From an uncultured Verrucomicrobiota bacterium (lineage in GTDB: Bacteria > Verrucomicrobiota > Verrucomicrobiia > Opitutales > UBA9783), in assembly GCA_902495005.1 (NCBI GenBank), contig CABUVL010000005.1, positions 21,131 to 85,130 of the forward strand: a stretch of 64,000 bases of DNA, given 5' to 3'. Below the pieces are notes generated by a model. The model did not search any database, was not told the origin of the DNA, and worked only from the letters and a program-made list of their open reading frames with translations. Shown piece after piece: positions 20,248-57,995 of this stretch. The translations under genes and the position numbers were made by a program. How positions within the stretch are numbered: position 1 is the first letter of the stretch; every line of letters starts with the position of its first letter.

Positions 20248-21957
20248 ATGAATAAAAAGCTTGCGTTATGCTTGAGGGACGGTATCATAAGTACATGGAC
20301 ATTAACGGCTCAACGGCTCAACGGCTCAACGGCTATAATAAGGCATAATGCCCTTTTAGGCTCTCTTTTATTTTATTTGTTTGGATGGATTTCCAGCTAC
20401 GCTTATACGCCTCCGTTTAAGTATAACACATTTTCCTTACTTAATACAACCTACATTCGTGATGGCACTACGTGGCGAGACTCCTTTTATTCAGCTTTAG
20501 GAAGTTGGGAGAAGTGCTTTCAAAGTTATCGACCCGGTTTTATGCTTGATTCTGATGGCACTTTATATGCCGTGTACTCAGATTGGGCAGGTGGTTTTGG
20601 AGGTAAAACTTATTATGTTATGAAACGAGGAGTCCCTAAGGAAGTCGGTGGTTATAATAGTAGCACTGATGTTTGCTCGGGTTTTTATTTTGATGTCGAT
20701 GAACTGCTAGGTTGTAAGGGTACTTGGACTACTGAAGTGAATTTTCGGAATGACACCGAGAAACAAAATTTTCAAAATTGCGCCTGGTTGACTTTAACGC
20801 CGCAGATTGCTCAACCTAGTGGTTCATCCTCTTATATACACACTATGATTTATATTTTGCCTCGCTGTTATTGGGATGCATCTAGTAGCGAAACCAAGGG
20901 ACGTTTCTTATGGTGCAGAATTAATAAAAGTAATATGACCATTCAATGGTCGGAAAGTTTTACTGAAGAGAAATATGGAAATGCAATGTCTTTCGGTGGC
21001 TTTCCAAAAATTGGGACAGTGAACAGTAGGCCTTCTCATTTAGCTTATTTGAATGGAAATCAACTCGATTGGTATTGGATAAATATGCAAGGCAATTACA
21101 ATATGTTGTGTAGAGGACGGATTAACGTTGCGGCGAGTCAGACAGCCTTTGTTGAAAGTTTTAAGACCTTACATGGTCAGGATGAAAACTGTTCTTTGGA
21201 GAAAGTAATGAAGGTTGATGGCCAAGTTTACCTTCTCGTAATTAGCTTAATTTGGGGTACAGATCGACAGTTGTTTATCTATAAAATAAATTCAGCAGGA
21301 AGTTTTGAATCTTCTTTTGGTAGTGAGTATTTCCTCGACTGTAGCCAAAAAAGAGAATTCGGAAGTGGATGCCCTTTACAGGTAGGTGCATCATCTATTT
21401 ACCATGCGGATATGAATATAGTTGATGGGATTTATTTGGTGATGAAATTCGAATATGGTGATGACATTAATCTTTATCACCTTGGGACTTCTAAGTCTTA
21501 TTGGAATGCCAATTACTTATCATGGAGTATAAATAGATTGGTATTACTTATAAGTTCAAATGATGGTACAAATAGTGACAATTGGTATGTACACCCTGAA
21601 AATATCATTTATGTAACAAATGAAATTGTATGTTCAGACGCATTGTGTAAAAATACACACAAGTTTGTAGTTTACAAAGATTACATTATCTACGCGTACT
21701 GTTATCCCGGTAAATCTAAACAACTTATTTTGGGAGCGGCGAGGTATTATATCGATAAAGATAAGCATCTTCATTTGATGACAAAGACGGAATTTCGAGA
21801 CAAGGATGGCAACAGCTTTGGAACATTGACGAATTGTGATAGACTCGTTTTTATGGATATTAAGAATGGTCACTTGTGGCTTGCGTGGATGGCAAGCTAT
21901 CTGGAAGTGTATTATATGTACGTCAACGCCCAAGATGTTATCGACGCAAGTGTGTAA
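20248..21957 (+). CDS. Cys-rich secreted hypothetical protein, paralogue A of a two-member family in this window
   Basis: 569 aa. A hydrophobic h-region LLGSLLFYLFGWISSYA is followed by YTPPF. It is full-length collinear with the 54095-55735 product, and the last ~100 aa are roughly 70 percent identical by hand alignment. GC content is lower than in neighbouring core genes, by eye. Confidence 0.75.
   Translation: MNKKLALCLRDGIISTWTLTAQRLNGSTAIIRHNALLGSLLFYLFGWISSYAYTPPFKYNTFSLLNTTYIRDGTTWRDSFYSALGSWEKCFQSYRPGFMLDSDGTLYAVYSDWAGGFGGKTYYVMKRGVPKEVGGYNSSTDVCSGFYFDVDELLGCKGTWTTEVNFRNDTEKQNFQNCAWLTLTPQIAQPSGSSSYIHTMIYILPRCYWDASSSETKGRFLWCRINKSNMTIQWSESFTEEKYGNAMSFGGFPKIGTVNSRPSHLAYLNGNQLDWYWINMQGNYNMLCRGRINVAASQTAFVESFKTLHGQDENCSLEKVMKVDGQVYLLVISLIWGTDRQLFIYKINSAGSFESSFGSEYFLDCSQKREFGSGCPLQVGASSIYHADMNIVDGIYLVMKFEYGDDINLYHLGTSKSYWNANYLSWSINRLVLLISSNDGTNSDNWYVHPENIIYVTNEIVCSDALCKNTHKFVVYKDYIIYAYCYPGKSKQLILGAARYYIDKDKHLHLMTKTEFRDKDGNSFGTLTNCDRLVFMDIKNGHLWLAWMASYLEVYYMYVNAQDVIDASV
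20304..20334 (+). repeat. Tandem 8-bp repeat AACGGCTC x3.9 inside the 5' end of paralogue A
   Basis: Read directly: aacggctc aacggctc aacggctc aacggct. The unit length is not a multiple of 3. It lies between the ATG (20248) and the signal-peptide-like segment. Confidence 0.95.
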
Positions 21958-22196
21958 AGGAAATGCCCGGCATTGAAATCTAGGCTGCATATTGGGCATC
22001 TTCTGCAGTAGAGGGAGATGTAAAAGATCATTATATTTTCGGTATATAAGGTGCTGTAAGTGAGTGAATTTAGGTTGTACTCCTAGCGAATCATGATCTG
22101 GTAAAAATTCGGCGGCCCATTTGTTGTGGATTTTCTCAGATGTCATGAACCAAAAATATAATCAAATGCGAAGGCCCATGGATGTAAAACTTTAAA

Positions 22197-25737: not shown

Positions 25738-27588
25738 CTAAGACTTGGAAATAATGCCTTGATCGATACAAAATTGTAATATTTCGCGGGCGACGGGCCC
25801 ACAAACGTGACTTCCCCAAAAGTTTTCTGTCAGGTCTTTTTGTTCGATCATGATGCAGAAAGCGATTTTGGGTGCTTGTACAGGTGCAAAGCCGATGAGC
25901 CATCCGATGTGAGCGTACGTGTGGGTGCCGGCAATTTTAACCTGTGAGGTCCCCGTTTTTACGGCCGACTTTAAGCCCTGAATGTACGCAAACCTTGAGG
26001 TCCCCGCTTCAACCGAACTTTCCATGCCTTTCAACAGCAATTGCCAATTTTTTTCTGGCATTAACGGCTTCGTCTTTGTTGGAGGGATAGGGGCGTCAAG
26101 GCATACATGCGGTGTTAAATTTTTTTGATTTTTTGCCAACGATGCGGCCACGCAAGCCATTTGTAAGGGTGTGATACGTAAAAATCCTTGTCCGATAGAA
26201 AAATTAGCCGTGTCGCCGTCTGTCCAAGACTCGTAAAGATGATTTTTTTTCCAAGTTTCGGAGGGCACCAGCGTGTTGCTTGTCTCGTAGGGTAAGTCGA
26301 TCTTTGTGGGGCTATTTAAACCAAATTCGCAGGCCTCTTGATAAATACGTGTGGGGCCACAGGCAAGTGCGAAGTGGTAGATAAAAGGGTTACAGCTGGT
26401 TTGAATGGCGCGGGTTACGTCGAGAAGACCGTGGCCTTGCCGGTTGTGACAGTGGAATGTTCTGTTCCCAATGAGGTAAGACCCTTCGCAGGTGAATTGA
26501 CTGTGTTCATTGACAACCCCTGACTTCATTAAAGCGGACAGGGAAATTAATTTGAACGTGGATCCTGGCGGGTAGAGTCCTTGAATGGCTCGGTTTAACC
26601 AAGCACCCTGTTCGGTGATTTCCTGAAAAGTCTTGCGTGAAATACTCGGTGTGAGTTGATTGAGGTCGAAGTCGGGTTTGCTGACGAGCGATAAGACGTC
26701 GCCGCTATTGACGTCCAATACAATGACGGAGCCTTGGCGATCTTTCAGAGCCTGTTCGCAAACTTGTTGTAAGTGAATGTCGAGTGTAAGATGGATGTCA
26801 TCCCCGTCTTTACTGGGGAGGGATATCAAGCAGTCTTGCTCTTGTCCCGAAGGGCTTACGCGCCAGATGTCGCCGCCGTTTAATCCGCTGAGTTGATCGT
26901 CGTAGTAGGCTTCGACGCCTGTTTTGCCCTTTTGCTTGGGTAAAAAGAAGGTCCGTAGGTCTTCTCCGGGCAAGTTGTCGTGCGTTAATTGAGGGGTACG
27001 TGTGACGTAACCGATGACGTGGCAGGCGCTTCGTCCATAGGGATAATGGCGGATTTTTTCAACACCTACTTGGAAAGGGCCGTCCACCGGCAAAGTTTCG
27101 AGTAAGCTGGCGTACGCTTGTTTTGTCAGGTGCTTCGAAATGGCAAGTGGGAGTAATGCATTTTGTTGATAATGTGTATAAATTGTTTTTTTTGAAATGT
27201 TGAATGGTATGGGGCCAACTTTTTTGGAATACGGCAGTAAAGCGTCGTGCACAAGGGCCCAGAGTTGTTCAGCTAGGGCACTGGAATCTTTGTTGGTCTT
27301 ACTAAAATTTGCGAGACGCGTTCGAAAGTAATTGAGGTCTACGTACAGACAGTACGAATCCTTATTATCCGCCAAGACATTCCCGAATCGATCGTAAATA
27401 CGGCCTCGTTGTCCGGGGTATAAAATTCGACGCAGGCACTGCCTTTGATTGAGCTTGTCGTAGAGGTTATAGCAAAAGTATTGTCGCCACAACACGGCCA
27501 ATGCGAGAAGTCCAAAGGCAACAACGACGACAAATCGTAAAAAATTCAAACGACCTATATTGGAACGCGATTTATCAAAGCAGATCAT
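25738..27588 (-). CDS. mrdA: Penicillin-binding protein 2 (elongation transpeptidase)
   Basis: N-terminal TM anchor, SxxK (PGSTFKL), SxN (TSCNPF) and KTG (VKTGTSQV) motifs. ATGA overlap with the folA stop at 27585-27588. Confidence 0.9.
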   Translation of the reverse strand: MICFDKSRSNIGRLNFLRFVVVVAFGLLALAVLWRQYFCYNLYDKLNQRQCLRRILYPGQRGRIYDRFGNVLADNKDSYCLYVDLNYFRTRLANFSKTNKDSSALAEQLWALVHDALLPYSKKVGPIPFNISKKTIYTHYQQNALLPLAISKHLTKQAYASLLETLPVDGPFQVGVEKIRHYPYGRSACHVIGYVTRTPQLTHDNLPGEDLRTFFLPKQKGKTGVEAYYDDQLSGLNGGDIWRVSPSGQEQDCLISLPSKDGDDIHLTLDIHLQQVCEQALKDRQGSVIVLDVNSGDVLSLVSKPDFDLNQLTPSISRKTFQEITEQGAWLNRAIQGLYPPGSTFKLISLSALMKSGVVNEHSQFTCEGSYLIGNRTFHCHNRQGHGLLDVTRAIQTSCNPFIYHFALACGPTRIYQEACEFGLNSPTKIDLPYETSNTLVPSETWKKNHLYESWTDGDTANFSIGQGFLRITPLQMACVAASLAKNQKNLTPHVCLDAPIPPTKTKPLMPEKNWQLLLKGMESSVEAGTSRFAYIQGLKSAVKTGTSQVKIAGTHTYAHIGWLIGFAPVQAPKIAFCIMIEQKDLTENFWGSHVCGPVAREILQFCIDQGIISKS

Positions 27589-29693: not shown

Positions 29694-30871
29694 TTAATAA
29701 ATTAAGCAACAGGAATTTTCAGATTTTCGAGGACACACATCACTAGCTTCTTCTGTTATTATTCCAGAACTTGTGACTGCAGATATAAGTTCCCGCATTG
29801 CTTTTTCTATGGATTCTTGAGTTAAAATTTCGAATAAATATGCTGAATGTTTGCCCGCACACGCTAATCGATTTATCGTCTCAGACACACATGCCATTTG
29901 TTTTGCTGCATTTGAACTTTTCCCTATTTTTTCTTGAAGCCTTTGATATTCTATTAAGGCAATAACCCTTGTAAGTCCGTAATGGGCGAGATCGTGTACA
30001 AAATTACGTTTTATGTACGCACAAATGTAATTTTCTGTTTTCTTTTGCAGTTCTTCAGAGCGTAAATTTTCTGGGATCCCTTCCATTACACATGCTACTA
30101 AAGAATCTATTGGATTTGATGCTTTTTCTAAAAAAGTATTATTTCCATCTATCAATTGTATGGAAATGTGGAACATCGTTAATTCAAAGTACATTGATTG
30201 TACGTAGCTGGTGACTGCCTGTGCTCTTTCATTTAGAGGAAGATCTGCATTGTTCAATGTGGCATAAAGTGCATCTGTTTCAAAAAAACTAGAGTAAAGT
30301 TCGTCATTATCGCCTTTCGAGAAAATTTCATGTGCGACCCCGTGACCGCTTTCATGCGCCATACCAACCATTAGGTCAGCGAAAGTTGGGCGCACTAAAC
30401 AAAATTTTTGCTCGTTGTAAGAATAATGCCCACCGTGTAAGTCGTCTATTTTCAACTCATCTTTATATTTTTTTTATCTTCCGAATTTTTGGGAGCCAAA
30501 TGTATACTATTTGAATCTAAAGAAGTCTTTACAACTTGAGCCGCAAAATTTCGTATTTTTCCATTTTTCATGATCAGCATTTTTTCTGTCATATTATGCC
30601 AAGCTTGTAATATTTCTTCGTTAGAAATGGCAGCTGTTCCTGTTGAACAGCTTTCTCCAGTCGCTGCGTTTGATAGTGACTCGTATGACTCATATAACCA
30701 TTGTTTCTTTTGACAAATTTGATCAAAATAGGTTTTATAAGGACCGATAATTTCTTTTACCTGGCCTAATTCCAAGTTAAGTTGTCGTGCAGGATCCAAT
30801 TCACGCGATCCATTCAGTACTAACTTTGCTGGTTGTTGTATCAGGGAGAGATTATTTCCTGCCTCTCCCAT
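29694..30871 (-). pseudogene. HExxH (gluzincin-like) protein gene split into two ORFs by a frame change at an A8 tract
   Basis: ORFs 30452-30871 and 29694-30455 overlap by 4 nt. The span of 1178 nt is not a multiple of 3. Adding one A to the A8 run (plus-strand T8 at 30468-30475) fuses them: ...SEDKKKYKDELKIDDLHGGHY.... The zinc motif MAHESGHGVAHE lies in the downstream part. The C-terminus is ...SCCLIY. Confidence 0.7.
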
Positions 30872-31555: not shown

Positions 31556-31633
31556 GGTGGTTGTAGCTCAATTGGCTAGAGCACTGGATTGTGGTTCCAG
31601 GGGTTACCGGTTCGAGACCGGTCTACCACCCCA
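31556..31633 (+). tRNA. tRNA-His (anticodon GTG), CCA encoded
   Basis: Hand-folded cloverleaf with the extra G-1 pairing with C73, D stem GCTC/GAGC, anticodon stem CTGGA/TCCAG with loop TTGTGGT, and T arm ACCGG-TTCGAGA-CCGGT. There is one T-T mismatch in the acceptor stem. Confidence 0.9.
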
Positions 31634-34876: not shown

Positions 34877-35264
34877 TGGTGGAGGTGGCGGGATTTGAAC
34901 CCGCGTCTTCTGCACATTTAATTAAAGCTTCTACAAGCTTAGTACATTTTGGGTTGTCCACATTAAACCCGTATGCACACGTTTTTAATGTGTAAGTGAT
35001 AGAAAATACGATTGGAAATTACCACACTTTCCAATTATACTCGCTGAGTGAGCTTTTAAAATTAAGCGAGCATCCATTTTAAAAGCAGAATTGCATCTAT
35101 AGGCAATTCATACGATATCCTAAGCAGCCATCGCCAAGGAGGCGCTTGGGAATTTTACTACATTGTTTTCATTTATTTGTAAATGGATTGATAACGAAGC
35201 CAACCATCATCTTCGGCCTGCCACTTTAATTATACATTACAAAATCGAATCCAATAACACCCCC
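34877..35264 (-). ncRNA. ssrA: tmRNA (SsrA)
   Basis: 5' end GGGGGTGTTATTGGATTCGA and 3' end GACGCGGGTTCAAATCCCGCCACCTCCACCA. The acceptor stem carries the G3-U70 alanine identity pair. An internal tag frame ends ...VVKFPSASLAMAA then TAG. Confidence 0.92.
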
Positions 35265-49870: not shown

Positions 49871-49945
49871 GCCCGTGTGGTGTAACGGTCAGCACGGTAG
49901 GTTCTCATCCTACAAATCGCAGTTCGATTCTGCGCATGGGTGCCA
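49871..49945 (+). tRNA. tRNA-Glu (anticodon CTC), CCA encoded
   Basis: Hand-folded: acceptor GCCCGTG/CATGGGT (two G-T pairs), anticodon stem GTAGG/CCTAC with loop TTCTCAT, and T arm CGCAG-TTCGATT-CTGCG. Confidence 0.8.
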
Positions 49946-52953: not shown

Positions 52954-53541
52954 ATGAGGCAGAAGGACTTATTGATGGTGCTGACGGGGCCGTCGGGAAG
53001 TGGCAAGACGACGCTTAGTTTACGTTTATTGAATGAAATTGAGGGTGTACGCAAGGTGATTACGACGACGACGCGTGCACCTCGGATGGGAGAAGTGGAT
53101 GGCATTGATTATCATTTTCAGACGCCGGAAAAATTTGCCGATGGTTTGGAAAAAAATGCCTATGTTGAGCATGCGAAAGTCTATGATCACTACTATGGGG
53201 TGGCTAAAGAGGATCTTGAGCGGCCGTGTGATGAAGGGAAGGATTTGGTCCTGTGCGTTGATGTGCAGGGGGCTCTGACGTTGAAGCGGCAGTGGCAGTC
53301 CGCTGCGAGTGGGCGTCGTTTGTTGTGTATTTTTGTGAGCCCCAGCGATCTCGGTGAATTAGAACGTCGTCTGCTTAGACGCGGAACCGACGATGCACAG
53401 ACGATCCGAAGACGCCTTCAAATGGCTGAAAAGGAGTTGGAAATTTTGTCTCAATTTGATTATTATCTGTGTAGTCGAGACAAAGCGTCCGATTGGCAGT
53501 CTTTGCAGCACATTTATTTTGCAGAGAAAATGCGTATTTAA
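52954..53541 (+). CDS. gmk: Guanylate kinase
   Basis: GPSGSGKTT P-loop, TTTRAPRMGEVDGIDYHF, and YVEHAKVYDHYYG. Confidence 0.92.
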   Translation: MRQKDLLMVLTGPSGSGKTTLSLRLLNEIEGVRKVITTTTRAPRMGEVDGIDYHFQTPEKFADGLEKNAYVEHAKVYDHYYGVAKEDLERPCDEGKDLVLCVDVQGALTLKRQWQSAASGRRLLCIFVSPSDLGELERRLLRRGTDDAQTIRRRLQMAEKELEILSQFDYYLCSRDKASDWQSLQHIYFAEKMRI

Positions 53542-54086
53542 GCAATGTTTTCAAGGTATACCTCCTTAAGTTGTTGATTGGATGGAATGGATAATTGAGC
53601 GACGTTGAAGTAAGCGATGCCCATTTTTCCCAGGTTTGAATCGCGGGAGCAGGTCAACATGAGCTTGCCGTTTTCTTTAAAAGAGCAACGTCCTTGTGGG
53701 TCGATAGAGATGGCGATGGCTGCATTCGGGTCTTTGAAAAATTCGTTAAATAGGGGATTTGAACGAATGCCTTCGAGCAGGTCGGCTTTCATTCGATTGC
53801 AGGTTTCGACGGCACAACCTTTTTTGGAGAGACGTTGAAGAATGGCATGAAAATTGATAGTGCCAGCTTCAATGTTGCGAATTTTGTTTAATGTTTGATC
53901 AAGCAGAGAAGTTCCGATGCTTGACAGACCGCTGATAATTAAAGGATGCATACTTAATAGTGTAGCAAAAAGCGTGCCAAGTTTTTGAATGATTGATGTG
54001 CGATGAGATAGAAAAAGTTTACCAGGTTTATAATATTGATGTGGAATGATCTTACTGATGAAAGATTTGCAATAAAACGCTTGCAT
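53538..54086 (-). CDS. Hypothetical protein
   Basis: 182-aa ORF. Its stop overlaps the gmk stop (TTAA). No motif recognised, and the start is uncertain (alternative Met at about 53951). Confidence 0.4.
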   Translation of the reverse strand: MQAFYCKSFISKIIPHQYYKPGKLFLSHRTSIIQKLGTLFATLLSMHPLIISGLSSIGTSLLDQTLNKIRNIEAGTINFHAILQRLSKKGCAVETCNRMKADLLEGIRSNPLFNEFFKDPNAAIAISIDPQGRCSFKENGKLMLTCSRDSNLGKMGIAYFNVAQLSIPSNQQLKEVYLENIA

Positions 54087-54094
54087 TGTGGTAA

Positions 54095-55735
54095 TTGGTT
54101 GATTATTCTAACTTGGTGGGCGTGAGTCTTAAATATAACTTTTTTTTGGCTATTCTCTTGATTTGTTGCGGTACCGCCGTTTGGGCTTACACACCTCCAT
54201 TTTACAGTAAGTGTAAGTTTTCTAATTATTGTTGGCCTATTTATTGGTCCATTAATTCTGGAGATAAGACTGCGATTAATCCAAGTTTTATGGTAGATCA
54301 CAATGGAGATTTATTTTACGTGGGTCCGGATCCCGGAAGTGGCTTTGGTAGTGTATTTTTTTTAGTGAAAGTTACAAAAGAAGGAACTTATAATCATAAA
54401 GCTGTATACCCTTATCAATGTGCAGGTTATGCTGTAAGTTTAGATACAACAAAGCTTTCTAGTTCAGATAAACAACGGCTTTGGGTTAATTTTACCCCGT
54501 CAGTTGCATACGAGTCGGTTGAAACAGATTATGTTTATGTTGTCTTTTACGTTTTACCAAATAGGTTCAGTGCTTCTGGGACAACCAATGAAGGCTTTGT
54601 GTTTATGAAATTTAGAAAATCGGATTTGGATCTGGCTGGAGATCACTCTATGAGTTCAGTTGCAAGCAAGTTTGTAAATTTCAGTGATTCTTCTTTACTT
54701 AAATTTTCTTCTTCAACGTGTGGATATGTGACTGAATTTTGTTACTCAGGTTTGCCACCCTTTAATAACTGTACTATTAATCAATGTTGTTTCCTCGCTT
54801 GTGTTAATAATGATGCGGTATCCGTGTATTACACTAATGATTACAATTCAAGTTCTGCGAACACAAATAGTTTTGGATTAAGAGAGGTGGCATGCTCAAC
54901 AGATCTTAGTGCCGTAAAGTCTATGAGAAGTGATACCGGTGGGTGGGAGACCAGTACTCCGCGAGCTTTGAAACGAATATTAACTTATGAAGGTAGTACT
55001 TATTTATTAATAGTAAATGCGGGGTGGTTTTTAAGATTTTTTAAGATAGTGCCTTCCGTATCAATGAGTTTTTGCAGAAGTTGTTATTATTACGGTGCTT
55101 ATATGCATACGATAAGTTGGACCACGAGTGATTGTAGTTACGATGGTGATATGGGAATAGTAAAGGCTAACGATGGAACTATAATAGATCTTGGTTTGCA
55201 GTTATCTTGTTCATATCATATTAAAAATTCGACTTGGTCAACGGATAAAATATCTTCGGATACAATGAATAATAAAATTGTTTTGTTTTTACAATCTGGA
55301 AGTTCTTCAGTGCCTGATTGGTCTGGCTATTGGTACGGTGGCCCTGAGAATATTATTTATGTATCTGGTGTAAATAAGTATGGAGGAAGTATAAATTCGA
55401 GTACTTGCTCAGAGGCAACCTTGTATAGAAATACATACAAGTTTGTGGCTTACAATAATTACATTATCTATGCGTATTGTTATCCGGGGAGAACAAAGCA
55501 ACTTATTTTGGGGGCTGCAAGGTATTATATTGACTCACAATATCAAGTTCATTTATTGACGAAGACAGAATTCAGAGATAAAGATAACAACAGCTTTGGT
55601 ACGCTGACAAATTGCGATCACCTCATGTTTATGGATGTTAGAAATGGGCACTTGTGGTTGGCTTGGATGGATACCAACAATTATATTCGCCACATGTACG
55701 TTAAAGCTCAAGACATTATCGATGCGTGCTACTGA
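54095..55735 (+). CDS. Cys-rich secreted hypothetical protein, paralogue B
   Basis: The likely true start is GTG 54122, giving the signal peptide MSLKYNFFLAILLICCGTAVWA followed by YTPPF. About 20 Cys. The C-terminal block YKFVAYNNYIIYAYCYPGRTKQLILGAARYYID...TKTEFRDKDNNSFGTLTNCD...NGHLWLAWM is shared with paralogue A. Confidence 0.75.
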   Translation: MVDYSNLVGVSLKYNFFLAILLICCGTAVWAYTPPFYSKCKFSNYCWPIYWSINSGDKTAINPSFMVDHNGDLFYVGPDPGSGFGSVFFLVKVTKEGTYNHKAVYPYQCAGYAVSLDTTKLSSSDKQRLWVNFTPSVAYESVETDYVYVVFYVLPNRFSASGTTNEGFVFMKFRKSDLDLAGDHSMSSVASKFVNFSDSSLLKFSSSTCGYVTEFCYSGLPPFNNCTINQCCFLACVNNDAVSVYYTNDYNSSSANTNSFGLREVACSTDLSAVKSMRSDTGGWETSTPRALKRILTYEGSTYLLIVNAGWFLRFFKIVPSVSMSFCRSCYYYGAYMHTISWTTSDCSYDGDMGIVKANDGTIIDLGLQLSCSYHIKNSTWSTDKISSDTMNNKIVLFLQSGSSSVPDWSGYWYGGPENIIYVSGVNKYGGSINSSTCSEATLYRNTYKFVAYNNYIIYAYCYPGRTKQLILGAARYYIDSQYQVHLLTKTEFRDKDNNSFGTLTNCDHLMFMDVRNGHLWLAWMDTNNYIRHMYVKAQDIIDACY

Positions 55736-55942: not shown

Positions 55943-57289
55943 TTGACAATAGCGTCGATCCGGCGAGATACTGGCCAAGTGATTTATCTGAGCTTGGGGT
56001 CGAATACGGGGGATCGGTTGGAGAATTTGAGGCGCGCCTTGCGTTGTGTGGAACAACGTTGCCTCACGCACGTTAAAACTTCAATCGTGCTGGAAACCAA
56101 GGCAATTTTGCCGCCGGATGCCCCGCAAGAGTGGGATCGGCCTTACTTGAATATGATTGTGTGTGGAGAAAGCAGCCTGTCTCCGAAGCAATTATTGGCG
56201 AGCCTACAGCAGATTGAACTTGAAATGGGCCGCGAAAAGGATCATTTGCACTGGAGCCCACGCACGATTGATATTGATATTTTGCTGTACAACGACCTGT
56301 GCCTTGCGACGGATAGCCTGCAAGTGCCGCACCTGGAGTTGCTAAATCGCCCATTCTTTCTGCATTTATTGGCCTTACTCAATCCGTTGTTGAAACATCC
56401 GGGCAATCATCTGCCGTTTGAATTATTGGCCCAGCAGGCGGCCGATACGGACGTCTTTATAAGGTCATTGTGCCTGGCGCCCAAGTTTGTCGGCGTTGTC
56501 AACGTGACGCCGGATTCTTTTTCAGATGGAGGTGAGCATGATTCCACGCAGGCCGCTTTGACGCACGCAGAGCGCTTGCTCGATGAGGGGGCCAGTGTGA
56601 TCGAATTTGGGGCGCAGTCGACGCGACCCGGTTCACAACAGATGGGCGCGGCGTATGAATTACAGCGGCTTGAGCCCATTTTGGACCTTTGGTACGCTCA
56701 TCCAAAACTGAAAAGTATTCCGGTAAGTATCGACACGTATTGGCCGAAAGTCATGATAAAACTCGTTGAAAATTACCCAATTGCGTGGATCAATGACGTT
56801 AAGTGTCAATTGGATAAGGGCACGCTGAAGATCATTGCTAATGCGGGCTGCTCTATCTGCGTCATGCATTCGTTGTCGGTGCCACCGCAGAGAGATTTGC
56901 ACCTGCCTCTCGAAGACTTGCCCATGGCTCACATCGAGCAATGGTTCGCTCCGTTATTGGAAAAGTTGCAAGCCTGTGGATTTGAGCGCTCATCGATTAT
57001 CTTTGACCCCGGTTTGGGCTTCGGAAAGACAATGTTTCAAAATTGGGCATTGTTGCGCCAAATCGAACGCATGAAACAGTGGGGCTGCCCCATCCTCATC
57101 GGCCACTCCCGGAAGTCATTCTACAACGCCGTTTGTAAGGAAAATTTTGCACAGCGAGATGTGGAAACCTTGGCCGTTTCAAGCTGCTTGCAGCCCTTCA
57201 ACGTCGATTACCTGCGTGTGCACAACGTTCAGATGCATCAGAGATTTTTTTCAACACAACATTGCTTGAATTCTTATTATGCAAATTGA
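55943..57289 (+). CDS. folKP: Bifunctional HPPK / dihydropteroate synthase (FolK-FolP fusion)
   Basis: The N-terminal half has the HPPK pattern (VIYLSLGSNTGDRLENL, RTIDIDILLY, PHLELLNRPF). The C-terminal half has the DHPS pattern (VGVVNVTPDSFSDGG, DPGLGFGK, GHSRKSF). Confidence 0.9.
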   Translation: MTIASIRRDTGQVIYLSLGSNTGDRLENLRRALRCVEQRCLTHVKTSIVLETKAILPPDAPQEWDRPYLNMIVCGESSLSPKQLLASLQQIELEMGREKDHLHWSPRTIDIDILLYNDLCLATDSLQVPHLELLNRPFFLHLLALLNPLLKHPGNHLPFELLAQQAADTDVFIRSLCLAPKFVGVVNVTPDSFSDGGEHDSTQAALTHAERLLDEGASVIEFGAQSTRPGSQQMGAAYELQRLEPILDLWYAHPKLKSIPVSIDTYWPKVMIKLVENYPIAWINDVKCQLDKGTLKIIANAGCSICVMHSLSVPPQRDLHLPLEDLPMAHIEQWFAPLLEKLQACGFERSSIIFDPGLGFGKTMFQNWALLRQIERMKQWGCPILIGHSRKSFYNAVCKENFAQRDVETLAVSSCLQPFNVDYLRVHNVQMHQRFFSTQHCLNSYYAN

Positions 57290-57995
57290 AGCCATTCGTA
57301 CATCACTCGTGTGTCACAAACAACCTTTGACGGAGTTTGTCGGCGCGCATTTGCAAAACATTTCGGACAATGACATCTTGGTCATCACTTCGAAGGTTGT
57401 CAGCATTTGTGAGGGGCGTACTGTATCAAAAGAGGCCGTCACAAAAGATGAATTGGTTCGTCGGGAAGCCGATAAAATTGTTCCAAACCCACATGCGGTT
57501 GACAAGCGCGTCGTTTTAACTTTGAAGGATAACATGTTGCTTCCGTCGGCGGGCATTGATGAGTCCAACGCAAATAACACCTACGTCATGTACCCAACAG
57601 ACAGCTTTGCGTCGGCACGATCCTTGTGGTCCTTCCTCAGAGAAAAATATCATCTAAAGCGCGTGGGCGTACTCATCACGGATAGCCGCACGACTCCATT
57701 GCGCAGAGGTGTAACGGGGATCGCTCTGGCCTGGTGGGGTTTTTCCCCCCTGTGGAGTTACGTCGGACAGCGAGATTTGTTCGATCGCGTCCTGTCAATG
57801 ACGTGTATTAACGTGGTCGATGCGCTGGCCACAAGTGCCGTTTTCGAAATGGGCGAGGGGAATGAATGCACGCCCTTGGCCATTATCAAAAATGCCCGAC
57901 GCGTCAACTTCGATGAATGTTCTCACGATGCCCAAGAAGTAAAGATTTCTATGGAAGAGGACCTTTACAGACCTCTGTTGGAACCTTTACTTTAA
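57279..57995 (+). CDS. folC2: CofE-like gamma-glutamyl ligase (FolC2-type folylpolyglutamate synthase)
   Basis: ILVITSKVVSICEGR, PSAGIDESNA, VLITDSRTTPLRRGVTGIALAWWGF. It overlaps the folKP stop by 11 nt, the same context as the chlamydial folate cluster. Confidence 0.75.
   Translation: MQIEAIRTSLVCHKQPLTEFVGAHLQNISDNDILVITSKVVSICEGRTVSKEAVTKDELVRREADKIVPNPHAVDKRVVLTLKDNMLLPSAGIDESNANNTYVMYPTDSFASARSLWSFLREKYHLKRVGVLITDSRTTPLRRGVTGIALAWWGFSPLWSYVGQRDLFDRVLSMTCINVVDALATSAVFEMGEGNECTPLAIIKNARRVNFDECSHDAQEVKISMEEDLYRPLLEPLL

Follow-up and report, generated by a model that had tools for sequence, protein, structure and literature searches.

The T8 run in the signal-peptide codons of copy B is best understood, with a probability of about 0.6, as an ordinary homopolymer: a site prone to mutation in an accessory gene that the cell can do without, and not a dedicated high-frequency switch. 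Base composition seems to account for most of it, and as an off-switch it would be weak and occasional at best. The family to which copy B belongs is the larger subject. It appears to be a new, unannotated and lineage-restricted family of Sec-exported, Cys-rich proteins in gut-associated Puniceicoccales/Opitutales, and many of its members carry a different and longer kind of repeat in the leader. The window, the whole 64 kb stretch of DNA analysed, comes from an uncultured species that is seen in human-gut-type samples. Its genes include an ATP/ADP translocase, a folate ligase (TIGR04132) and the type III secretion component YscX, a set in the style of intracellular bacteria.

Copy B and its leader

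54095..55735, plus strand: copy B, maximal stop-to-stop ORF, from TTG 54095 to TGA
54116-54118 and 54122-54124, plus strand: candidate GTG starts of copy B, equally good
54122..54187, plus strand: predicted Sec signal peptide MSLKYNFFLAILLICCGTAVWA, read from the sequence, with a Lys-bearing n-region, then a hydrophobic core, and V-W-A at -3 to -1
54140..54147, plus strand: T8 run, part of the Asn-Phe-Phe-Leu codons (AAC TTT TTT TTG) at the n/h boundary of the leader; T8 in 28 of 30 assemblies
54146..54148, plus strand: TTG made of the last two T residues of the T8 run plus G, an alternative or restart codon giving MAILLICCGTAVWA followed by YTPPF
54188..54202, plus strand: YTPPF, directly after the predicted cleavage site; the family-wide motif is Ala, cleavage, then Y-(T/S)-P-P-F, with Y-x-P in more distant members

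The likely product of copy B has 537-539 residues, counted from GTG 54122 or 54116, with 20 Cys residues in the 537, and has no Pfam or NCBIfam match. The sequence-only reading had described the ORF, the GTG at 54122 leading into the signal peptide and YTPPF, and the T8 run correctly. Its Sec leader also stands on inspection. GTG 54116, the TTG at 54146-54148 and a second T8 run had been missed. The leader can be divided by inspection into MSLK, YNFFLAILLICCGTA and V-W-A followed by the Tyr of the mature protein, and has the basic n-region, the hydrophobic h-region and the small residues at -3 and -1 of a Sec/SPase I substrate. It aligns with the IRHN.../IRLN... leaders of copies A and C; its cleavage context is conserved across the family alignment and a basic n-region is present in all family members. 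Processing as an SPase II lipoprotein, which calls for a lipobox of the form [LVI][ASTVI][GAS]C, was considered and rejected by inspection, as L-L-I-C-C has Ile at -1 and the Cys is unconserved in the family. On these features copy B appears to be a real and intact family member, with a leader that predicts export.

Shine–Dalgarno motifs are mostly absent from the genome and, because it uses them so rarely, they do not fix the start of copy B. Gene callers chose GTG 54116 for the 539-residue products and TTG 54146 for a 529-residue product (P0014), the latter on T8 and T7 DNA alike; this TTG is kept at T6-T10, that is, at any tract length. Product lengths of 539, 529, 481 and 471 residues were rejected as evidence of frameshifting, since the underlying DNA is identical and the differences are start choices of the gene callers.

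The family, its leader repeats and its predicted fold

20248..21957, plus strand: copy A, paralogue in the window, whose two start codons, ATG1 (20248) and ATG2 (20268), are out of frame with each other and both upstream of the repeat
20304..20334, plus strand: 8 bp tandem repeat AACGGCTC of copy A, four units in the window
55460..55489, plus strand: invariant motif YIIYAYCYPG in the C-terminal block of copy B (alignment A1, invariant columns Y449-G458)

At 50% identity the family falls into about 100 clusters, and the close clusters number 11; none is annotated, and no protein of the window's species has a protein name attached to it. Copy B matches the family profile with an E value of 1.9e-182 and has the family's defining features: the signal peptide, Ala at the cleavage site followed by Y-x-P(-P-F), and the invariant C-terminal series YIIYAYCYPG...LLTK...NSF...C...MD...LW (A1). 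The paralogy of copies A and B, for which the sequence-only reading had named the C-terminal block as the conserved part, proves to extend over the full protein (32% identity, E value of 3e-68), with the block itself (about 55349-55735) reaching 68-78% amino-acid and 75-78% nucleotide identity. Gene conversion of this block between copies A and B, which had been suggested as something to check by alignment, was rejected: identity at third codon positions is no higher there than in the rest of the gene. The conservation of the block therefore reflects purifying selection and not A/B conversion. Third-codon-position identity is elevated between copies A and C. The ORF at 21634-22146 was discarded as a gene, its tblastn matches being the antisense shadow of the conserved C-terminal block.

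Leader repeats in the family are perfect, have a period of 7, 8, 10 or 11 bp and follow the start codon but precede the signal peptide, in the termite-gut relatives as well. They are present in copy A and in nine further loci (L013, L015, L019, L020, L022, L023, L026, L027 and L029) and absent from L030-L032, so that the repeat appears to be frequent in the family, not universal. In copy A the number of units differs among strains (3, 4, 7, 8, 10, 27 and more than 8 units), and a frame model reproduces the observed product lengths of 569, 573, 577 and 585 residues. According to this model, the two ATGs in different frames and the repeat of 3-27 units would form a three-state switch. At the 5' end of copy B, TRF finds no tandem repeat. 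The sequence-only reading had seen repeat-bearing accessory genes as a recurring theme of the window; this holds strongly for the family, through copy A and the 7, 8, 10 and 11 bp repeats of its termite-gut members, but not for copy B.

The AF2 model (pTM of 0.79) is nearly all β, and the family fold is predicted to be a β-propeller. The best structural matches in the PDB are sialidase/BNR and PL24 propellers (NanA/NanB/NanC, PL24 ulvan lyase and BACOVA_03493; Foldseek E values of 1e-8 to 1e-6), but with TM scores of just 0.3-0.45 and identities of 6-11% the likeness is at the level of the fold only. GH33 sialidases and BNR propellers are marked by Asp-box repeats (S-x-D-x-G-x-T-W), an F/YRIP motif and a conserved Arg triad. 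Identity as a GH33 sialidase or BNR protein was rejected: there is no BNR/Asp-box Pfam match even at E<1, the family's invariant columns include no invariant Arg that could belong to the conserved Arg triad, and a profile search of PDB chains returned no sequence match.

Genomic neighbourhood

53538..54086, minus strand: divergent orphan ORF of 182 residues, its ATG 29 bp from GTG 54116
55943-57289, plus strand: folKP (HPPK and pterin-binding), downstream synteny anchor common to the termite-gut orthologues
57279-57995, plus strand: putative folate γ-glutamate ligase (TIGR04132), downstream synteny anchor common to the termite-gut orthologues

Copy B lies, as had been noted, beside the folate cluster, with folKP and the ligase gene downstream, and is divergent from the orphan ORF. 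A family member is found directly upstream of folKP in five termite-gut MAGs, and copy B is the positional orthologue of these repeat-bearing genes of termite-gut Puniceicoccales. The orphan ORF is conserved in about 87 contigs of the same species; it has no family match and no homologue beside the termite-gut orthologues. A promoter scan gave no convincing plus-strand promoter in the 29 bp gap between the two genes, and on the minus strand a promoter-like site (54132..54105) lies across the region where copy B starts.

Composition background of the T8 run

54356..54363, plus strand: second T8 run of copy B, GTA TTT TTT TTA GTG (V-F-F-L-V), used as an internal control; invariant in 30 of 30 assemblies

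The T8 run is no more than chance would give. It reads TTT TTT TTG because it encodes Phe-Phe-Leu in a T-rich gene with a GC content of 35.6% that prefers TTT (27 of its 31 Phe codons, against four TTC). The second run, 216 bp downstream of the first, also encodes Phe-Phe-Leu. For a gene of this composition the probability of at least one T8 is 0.26-0.33 and that of at least two is 0.03-0.06, which is mildly unusual. Over the 64 kb of the window there are 11 runs of at least eight, fewer than the Markov expectation, and ten T runs of at least eight compared with 14.7 expected. Housekeeping genes hold six of these 11 runs (in an oppA-like SBP gene, accD, PBP2 twice, recD2 and dnaJ), and runs of at least eight in the window show no enrichment in accessory or surface genes over core genes. 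Runs of eight are just as common in the window's core genes.

Variation of the tract among assemblies

54113..54129, plus strand: polymorphic stretch at and just upstream of the start, with two haplotypes told apart by SNPs at 54120 (G>A) and at 54129 (T>G, Leu>Arg)

Among 30 assemblies of the same species at 97.8-100% identity, 28 carry T8 and two carry T7 (L007 and L010), a count that is biased toward T8, 13 of the 30 loci having been fetched through full-length 539-residue products. The census is of consensus assemblies, which mask heterogeneity within a sample, and it remains compatible with a moderate switching rate. The two T7 alleles lie on two different haplotypes, and outside the tract neither T7 contig departs from its haplotype. 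The T7 consensus comes from SRR32041304 and SRR31022626, whereas ERR12540802, ERR13994929, SRR10423935 and the ERZ286xxxxx samples are among those with T8. Among the control tracts, the second T8 varies in 0 of 30 assemblies, the T8 runs of PBP2 in 0 of 6 and 0 of 7, the A7 run in gmk in 1 of 23 and the T8 at 30468 in 1 of 5; tracts suited as controls lie at 26243-26250, 27186-27193 and 53150-53156 as well as at 54356-54363. Tract-length polymorphism is not well above background, the two T7 alleles in 30 being statistically inseparable from these controls, and a scan of JGI metagenomes for T-tract alleles found none. The sequence-only reading had itself named what would speak against its proposal: an invariant tract together with homopolymers that are equally common in core genes, or a true start downstream of the tract. 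The first is largely what is seen; the second would leave tract length without effect on the frame, and TTG 54146 is a candidate start of this kind.

When translation is taken from the GTG, T7 gives MSLKYNFFWLFS followed by a stop, a peptide of 12-14 residues, and T9 gives one of 29-31 residues (29 from GTG 54122). The proposal that a one-base slip switches copy B off is borne out to this extent: both lengths destroy the GTG-initiated frame, but they matter only if translation starts there and not at TTG 54146. The effect of T7 on the expression of copy B would follow from this frame.

Four indels were seen across 125 kb of alignment, three of them in the 35 bp leader of copy B, and one assembly (L039) has a 1 bp deletion at 54113. 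Further independent lesions of copy B are a nonsense change, C54962T, in L065 and a replaced segment in L066. With lesions in L065, L039 and L066, the gene is therefore dispensable.

Alternative explanations of the tract

The tract could instead be a genuine contingency tract, in which slipped-strand mispairing toggles T8 (ON) to T7 or T9 (OFF) at an elevated rate and gives copy B the same stochastic ON/OFF control as its paralogues with longer repeats. We consider this unlikely. The loss of the GTG frame with either T7 or T9, the clustering of indels in the copy B leader and the two T7 alleles, which arose on separate haplotypes with no other difference from them, are all consistent with it, as are the position of the tract, in the same signal-peptide leader as the family repeats, and the demonstrable variability of copy A in the same genome. 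Yet the consensus is T8 in all but two assemblies, the variation is statistically like that of the controls (1/23, 0/30 and 0/13), core genes often contain T8 runs, for which Phe-Phe-Leu codons and composition account, and the OFF state would be blunted by a restart at the TTG. High-rate switching poly(A/T) tracts in phase-variable loci usually have at least nine bases. Taken together, these data argue only weakly for the T8 run as a phase switch. It is also unlikely that both T7 calls reflect homopolymer errors of sequencing or assembly and that the tract is effectively invariant in nature. Both contigs are unpolished Logan assemblies, and the 1 bp deletion in the A7 run of gmk in one assembly (L012), in an essential gene, is most easily read as an error. 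Such an error would, however, be needed twice at one site while the second T8 is clean in all 30 assemblies, and homopolymers of eight bases are within the normal accuracy of an Illumina consensus; that each contig otherwise matches its haplotype also argues for real alleles.

A start at TTG 54146 would turn the T run into an A/U-rich 5' untranslated leader, the length of which would be neutral or would tune initiation. This would explain the persistence of the T7 alleles and the two SNPs and an indel in the upstream 35 bp, as in unconstrained sequence; the codon survives from T6 to T10, gene callers chose it in some assemblies (P0014), and in a genome mostly lacking Shine–Dalgarno motifs A/U-rich leaders are plausible initiation sites. 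We nevertheless regard such a start as quite improbable. The leader MAILLICCGTAVWA has just 14 residues and lacks a basic n-region, whereas all other members of the family carry Arg or Lys in that region, and the n-region gains charge through the Leu>Arg SNP. Moreover, L-K-Y-N-F-F-L-A-I-L-L aligns residue by residue with I-R-L-N-A-F-I-T-A-L-L of copy C and IRHNALLGSLL of copy A, and these counterparts are necessarily translated from ATGs further upstream.

The reading of the tract as an ordinary homopolymer would fit a simple scheme. The family's usual control device would be a perfect tandem repeat of non-triplet period (7, 8, 10 or 11 bp), placed after the start codon and ahead of the hydrophobic core of the signal peptide; because the unit is non-triplet and inside the leader, slipped-strand changes in copy number would shift the frame in and out. 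Copy B lacks such a repeat, its T8 being the result of Phe-Phe-Leu codons. An occasional loss of a base in the run would truncate the GTG-initiated frame after 12-14 codons, leaving only the TTG restart with its short, uncharged leader.

Comparison with known phase-variable systems

In Neisseria opa genes, CTCTT pentamer repeats lie in the leader-peptide coding region. By analogy, copy A and the termite-gut members resemble opa in forming an exported multi-copy family with a non-triplet repeat in the signal-peptide codons, the copy number of which would set the frame. They differ in phylum (Verrucomicrobiota), in the predicted β-propeller as opposed to the Opa β-barrel, in repeat units that vary by subfamily (7, 8, 10 or 11 bp) and in the two start codons of copy A in two frames; copy B differs further in having only a T8 homopolymer with almost no variation. 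Homopolymers or short repeats control outer-membrane or surface genes in Helicobacter pylori (hop/sabA CT and poly-T), Campylobacter (poly-G) and Chlamydia pneumoniae (pmp poly-G). Copy B is like these in that a homopolymer lies close to the 5' end of the gene, the product has paralogues and is predicted to be exported and presumably host-facing, and a one-base slip would truncate the product made from the GTG. The tracts of those systems are typically longer, favour contingency genes over core genes and differ markedly in length from strain to strain and within a strain. In the window, core genes carry T8 runs just as often, and the tract of copy B is T8 in 28 of the 30 assemblies.

Significance

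The T8 run alone matters little, as homopolymers of this kind are present in many core genes of this T-rich genome. Copy B itself may be a surface or secreted factor that faces the host or phage. For the family as a whole, an unannotated, multi-copy and exported set of proteins with four non-triplet repeat periods and strain variation of 3-27 units suggests that an uncultured gut symbiont stochastically switches a protein facing its host, protists or phage. A literature search turned up no account of phase variation by repeats in Verrucomicrobiota. It is a tentative proposal, at slightly less than even odds, that the family constitutes a phase-variable system of surface or secreted antigens in gut Puniceicoccales that has not been described before, built on a repeat-in-leader module that sometimes has two starts in two frames and would then give one OFF state and two ON states that differ in their N-terminus; the T8 of copy B would be a minimal, low-rate version of it. 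The repeat system may thus provide a handle on the interaction of this lineage with its host, with proteins to express and tracts to follow in longitudinal metagenomes.

The copy B locus and its start codon

Copy B encodes a Cys-rich, probably exported protein (20 Cys in 537 residues) and lies beside an orphan gene and a folate cluster, with coordinates that agree with an earlier, sequence-only reading of this DNA.

Features of the copy B locus
53538-54086: orphan ORF, 182 aa, divergent from copy B
54095-55735, + strand: copy B, maximal ORF
54140-54147: T8 tract in the copy B leader
54356-54363: second T8 in copy B
55943-57289: folKP, downstream of copy B
57279-57995: folate gamma-glutamate ligase gene, TIGR04132-type, downstream of copy B

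The leader also reads as that account described it: translation from GTG 54122 gives MSLKYNFFLAILLICCGTAVWA and then YTPPF at 54188, and the tract lies within the codons AAC TTT TTT TTG. Absent from it were a further GTG candidate start at 54116, a TTG at 54146-54148 formed by the final two T's in the tract plus G, and the second T8, which likewise codes for Phe-Phe-Leu. Only 29 bp separate the orphan ORF from copy B; a promoter-like site for the orphan ORF (TTAAGA-16-TAGAAT, 54105-54132, minus strand) overlaps the copy B start region, and on this strand the tract is an A8 just upstream of the -35 element. The proposed C-terminal conservation with copy A, a paralogue at 20248-21957 (+), was recovered: the proteins align over their full length (32% identity, E 3e-68) and are 68-78% identical over the final ~110 residues.

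The sequence-only reading held that slippage by one base switches copy B off. This is correct for the GTG frames, which stop after 12-14 codons with T7 (MSLKYNFFWLFS and then a stop) and after 29-31 codons with T9. It fails if translation starts at TTG 54146, which is kept at any tract length and would yield MAILLICCGTAVWA followed by YTPPF, making tract length irrelevant for the frame. Shine-Dalgarno motifs are rare in this genome, so the start cannot be selected by them. The copy B leader L-K-Y-N-F-F-L-A-I-L-L, however, matches I-R-L-N-A-F-I-T-A-L-L of copy C (a third paralogue, P0002, 548 aa) and IRHNALLGSLL of copy A position by position. Both of these are necessarily translated from ATGs further upstream, and a basic n-region is present in every family member. 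This argues against the TTG start, which we consider improbable; the GTG start is favoured roughly two to one, in which case T7 would be an OFF or strongly reduced state.

Sequence background of the tract

The window contains 11 homopolymers of at least 8 nt (nine T8, one T9 and one A8), and its ten T runs of this length compare with 14.7 expected under a first-order Markov model. Six of the 11 sit in housekeeping genes (an oppA-like solute-binding protein gene, accD, PBP2 twice, recD2 and dnaJ); such tracts are not special to accessory genes. No stretch of the window is more AT-rich than copy B (35.6% GC), which spells Phe as TTT in 27 of 31 codons. When sequences were simulated with its composition or its codons preserved, 26-33% of them contained one T8 or more and 3-6% contained two or more. 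The T8 of copy B is not exceptional; both of its runs are simply F-F-L spelled TTT TTT TT[G/A].

Elsewhere on the minus strand, a 139-aa ORF (30452-30871) lies upstream of an HExxH ORF (29694-30455, 'AHESGHGVAHE'); the two are out of frame and meet at an A8 (coding strand, 30468-30475), which is one base shorter in one of five strains (L058); a G is inserted at 30848 in three of five. This junction is probably the 'HExxH gene with A8' of the sequence-only reading.

Variation of the tract among strains

Thirty same-species loci (97.8-100% identical) were compared from ENA, Logan and NCBI assemblies, whose sample names look like those of human-gut cohorts. The tract is T8 in 28 and T7 in two, a census biased toward T8 in that 13 of the 30 loci were retrieved via full-length products. 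The T7 loci, L007 (SRR32041304) and L010 (SRR31022626), are on different haplotypes, set by SNPs at 54120, 54129 and 54408.

Length variants at control tracts
Second T8 of copy B (54356-54363): 0/30
PBP2 T8 at 26243: 0/6
PBP2 T8 at 27186: 0/7
A7 in gmk (53150-53156): 1/23 (L012)
T8 at 30468, upstream of an accessory ORF: 1/5

Given these control rates, T7 at 2/30 is indistinguishable from background, and the strain comparison does not bear out a switching tract. Members of the copy B 90% cluster fall into length classes of 539, 529, 481 and 471 aa; frameshifting was rejected as their origin, as the same DNA underlies all classes, which are thus gene-caller choices. One same-species locus (L065) carries a nonsense change, C54962T (CGA>TGA), with T8 intact, an independent route to gene loss, and a replaced segment occurs in the low-coverage contig L066. 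Copy B is evidently dispensable in some hosts.

The T8 of copy B is a composition-driven F-F-L run, fixed in nearly all sampled strains, and we read it as an ordinary homopolymer that now and then gives rise to loss-of-function alleles, in an accessory gene that is dispensable (probability about 0.6). The alternatives overlap with this reading and are not exclusive of it. A true low-rate contingency tract is unlikely, the T7 frequency being indistinguishable from the variant rate at the control tracts; the 35-bp leader nevertheless holds three of the four indels found across 125 kb of aligned sequence, a clustering that counts against a purely neutral reading. It is also rather unlikely that the T7 calls are assembly errors. 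The gmk A7 is A6 in L012 (ERZ27304329), splitting the essential guanylate kinase gene; an error of assembly or sequencing is the most likely cause, and the tract is a useful gauge of background homopolymer noise.

The protein family and its hosts

Searches of Pfam, NCBIfam and PDB sequences with copy B gave no match. Word-indexed searching across 5.8 billion proteins gave 11 clusters; profile searching across 1.84 billion representatives gave about 100, with no Pfam domain among those tested. Every full-length member carries a signal peptide leading into A|Y-x-P (AYTPPF in close relatives) and an invariant C-terminal block with YIIYAYCYPG. An AlphaFold2 model from the family alignment (pTM 0.79, mean pLDDT 68) is nearly all beta, and the PDB entries that match it best are beta-propellers of the sialidase type and of PL24 (TM 0.3-0.45, 6-11% identity). 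Asp-boxes and a conserved Arg triad are absent from the family, and we call the predicted fold beta-propeller-like, nothing more specific. The literature searches found no description of such a family or its switching.

Among the genome contigs searched, family members are confined to three Opitutales MAGs and to termite-gut Puniceicoccales MAGs; each of the latter has several copies, which frequently lie at the end of a contig. In five termite MAGs folKP and the folate ligase gene directly follow a family member; these members are the positional orthologues of copy B. A search of the GTDB representative genomes did not find the window species, yet it is present in dozens of human-gut-type assemblies. 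Its GyrA is 85-86% identical to that of termite-gut 'Puniceicoccales bacterium' MAGs, and the window encodes an ATP/ADP translocase (TLC, PF03219; 50762-52288) and the TIGR04132 'intracellular' folate ligase. In other strains, a gene for the type III secretion component YscX lies beside copy C. Together, the translocase, folate ligase, YscX and GyrA kinship hint at a host-cell- or protist-associated lifestyle. The window also contains a tmRNA gene (34877-35264, -) and tRNA genes at 31557-31630 (+) and 49871-49942 (+).

Repeats in the family leaders

The copy A leader contains four copies of the 8-bp unit AACGGCTC (20304-20334), with two ATGs upstream that differ in frame (20248 and 20268). Other strains have 3, 4, 7, 8, 10, 27 and >8 units. 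With n units, the frame model places ATG1 in frame for n = 1 mod 3 and ATG2 for n = 2 mod 3, and is OFF for n = 0 mod 3. The observed product lengths follow from it exactly (ATG1: 569, 577 and 585 aa; ATG2: 573 aa), and alleles with 3 or 27 units, which gene callers truncated to 471 aa, are predicted to be OFF. Copy C (locus L055, 2768-4414; also L050 and L053) shares the copy A leader cassette and repeat; its mature N-terminus is copy-B-like and its C-terminus copy-A-like. In some assemblies the YscX-side upstream region is fused to the copy A body, by either recombination or mis-assembly via the shared leader. Opposite the conserved C-terminal block, on the antisense strand of copy A, lies a 170-aa ORF (21634-22146, -) that was rejected as a gene, its homologues in all family loci being shadow hits.

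In nearly all termite-gut members whose contig includes the 5' end, AYxPPF comes just after a perfect tandem repeat, which has a period of 7 bp (L013), 8 bp (L015, L019, L020), 10 bp (L023, L027, L029) or 11 bp (L022, L026), never a multiple of three; contig breaks are frequent inside these repeats. In L022, L026 and L029 the start codons are directly upstream of the repeat, which codes for the n/h region, and no in-frame restart precedes the cleavage site. Between repeat and signal peptide, L014, L019 and L020 also carry a long, basic leader of degenerate repeats (LKPxxRLEPEQ-like). The mechanism resembles the leader repeats of Neisseria opa and the homopolymer switches of Helicobacter and Campylobacter; the proteins are unrelated. 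The simple-repeat theme proposed from the sequence is right for copy A and the family, and more striking than was suggested, with the repeats in the leaders; copy B is the family exception, without the repeat module.
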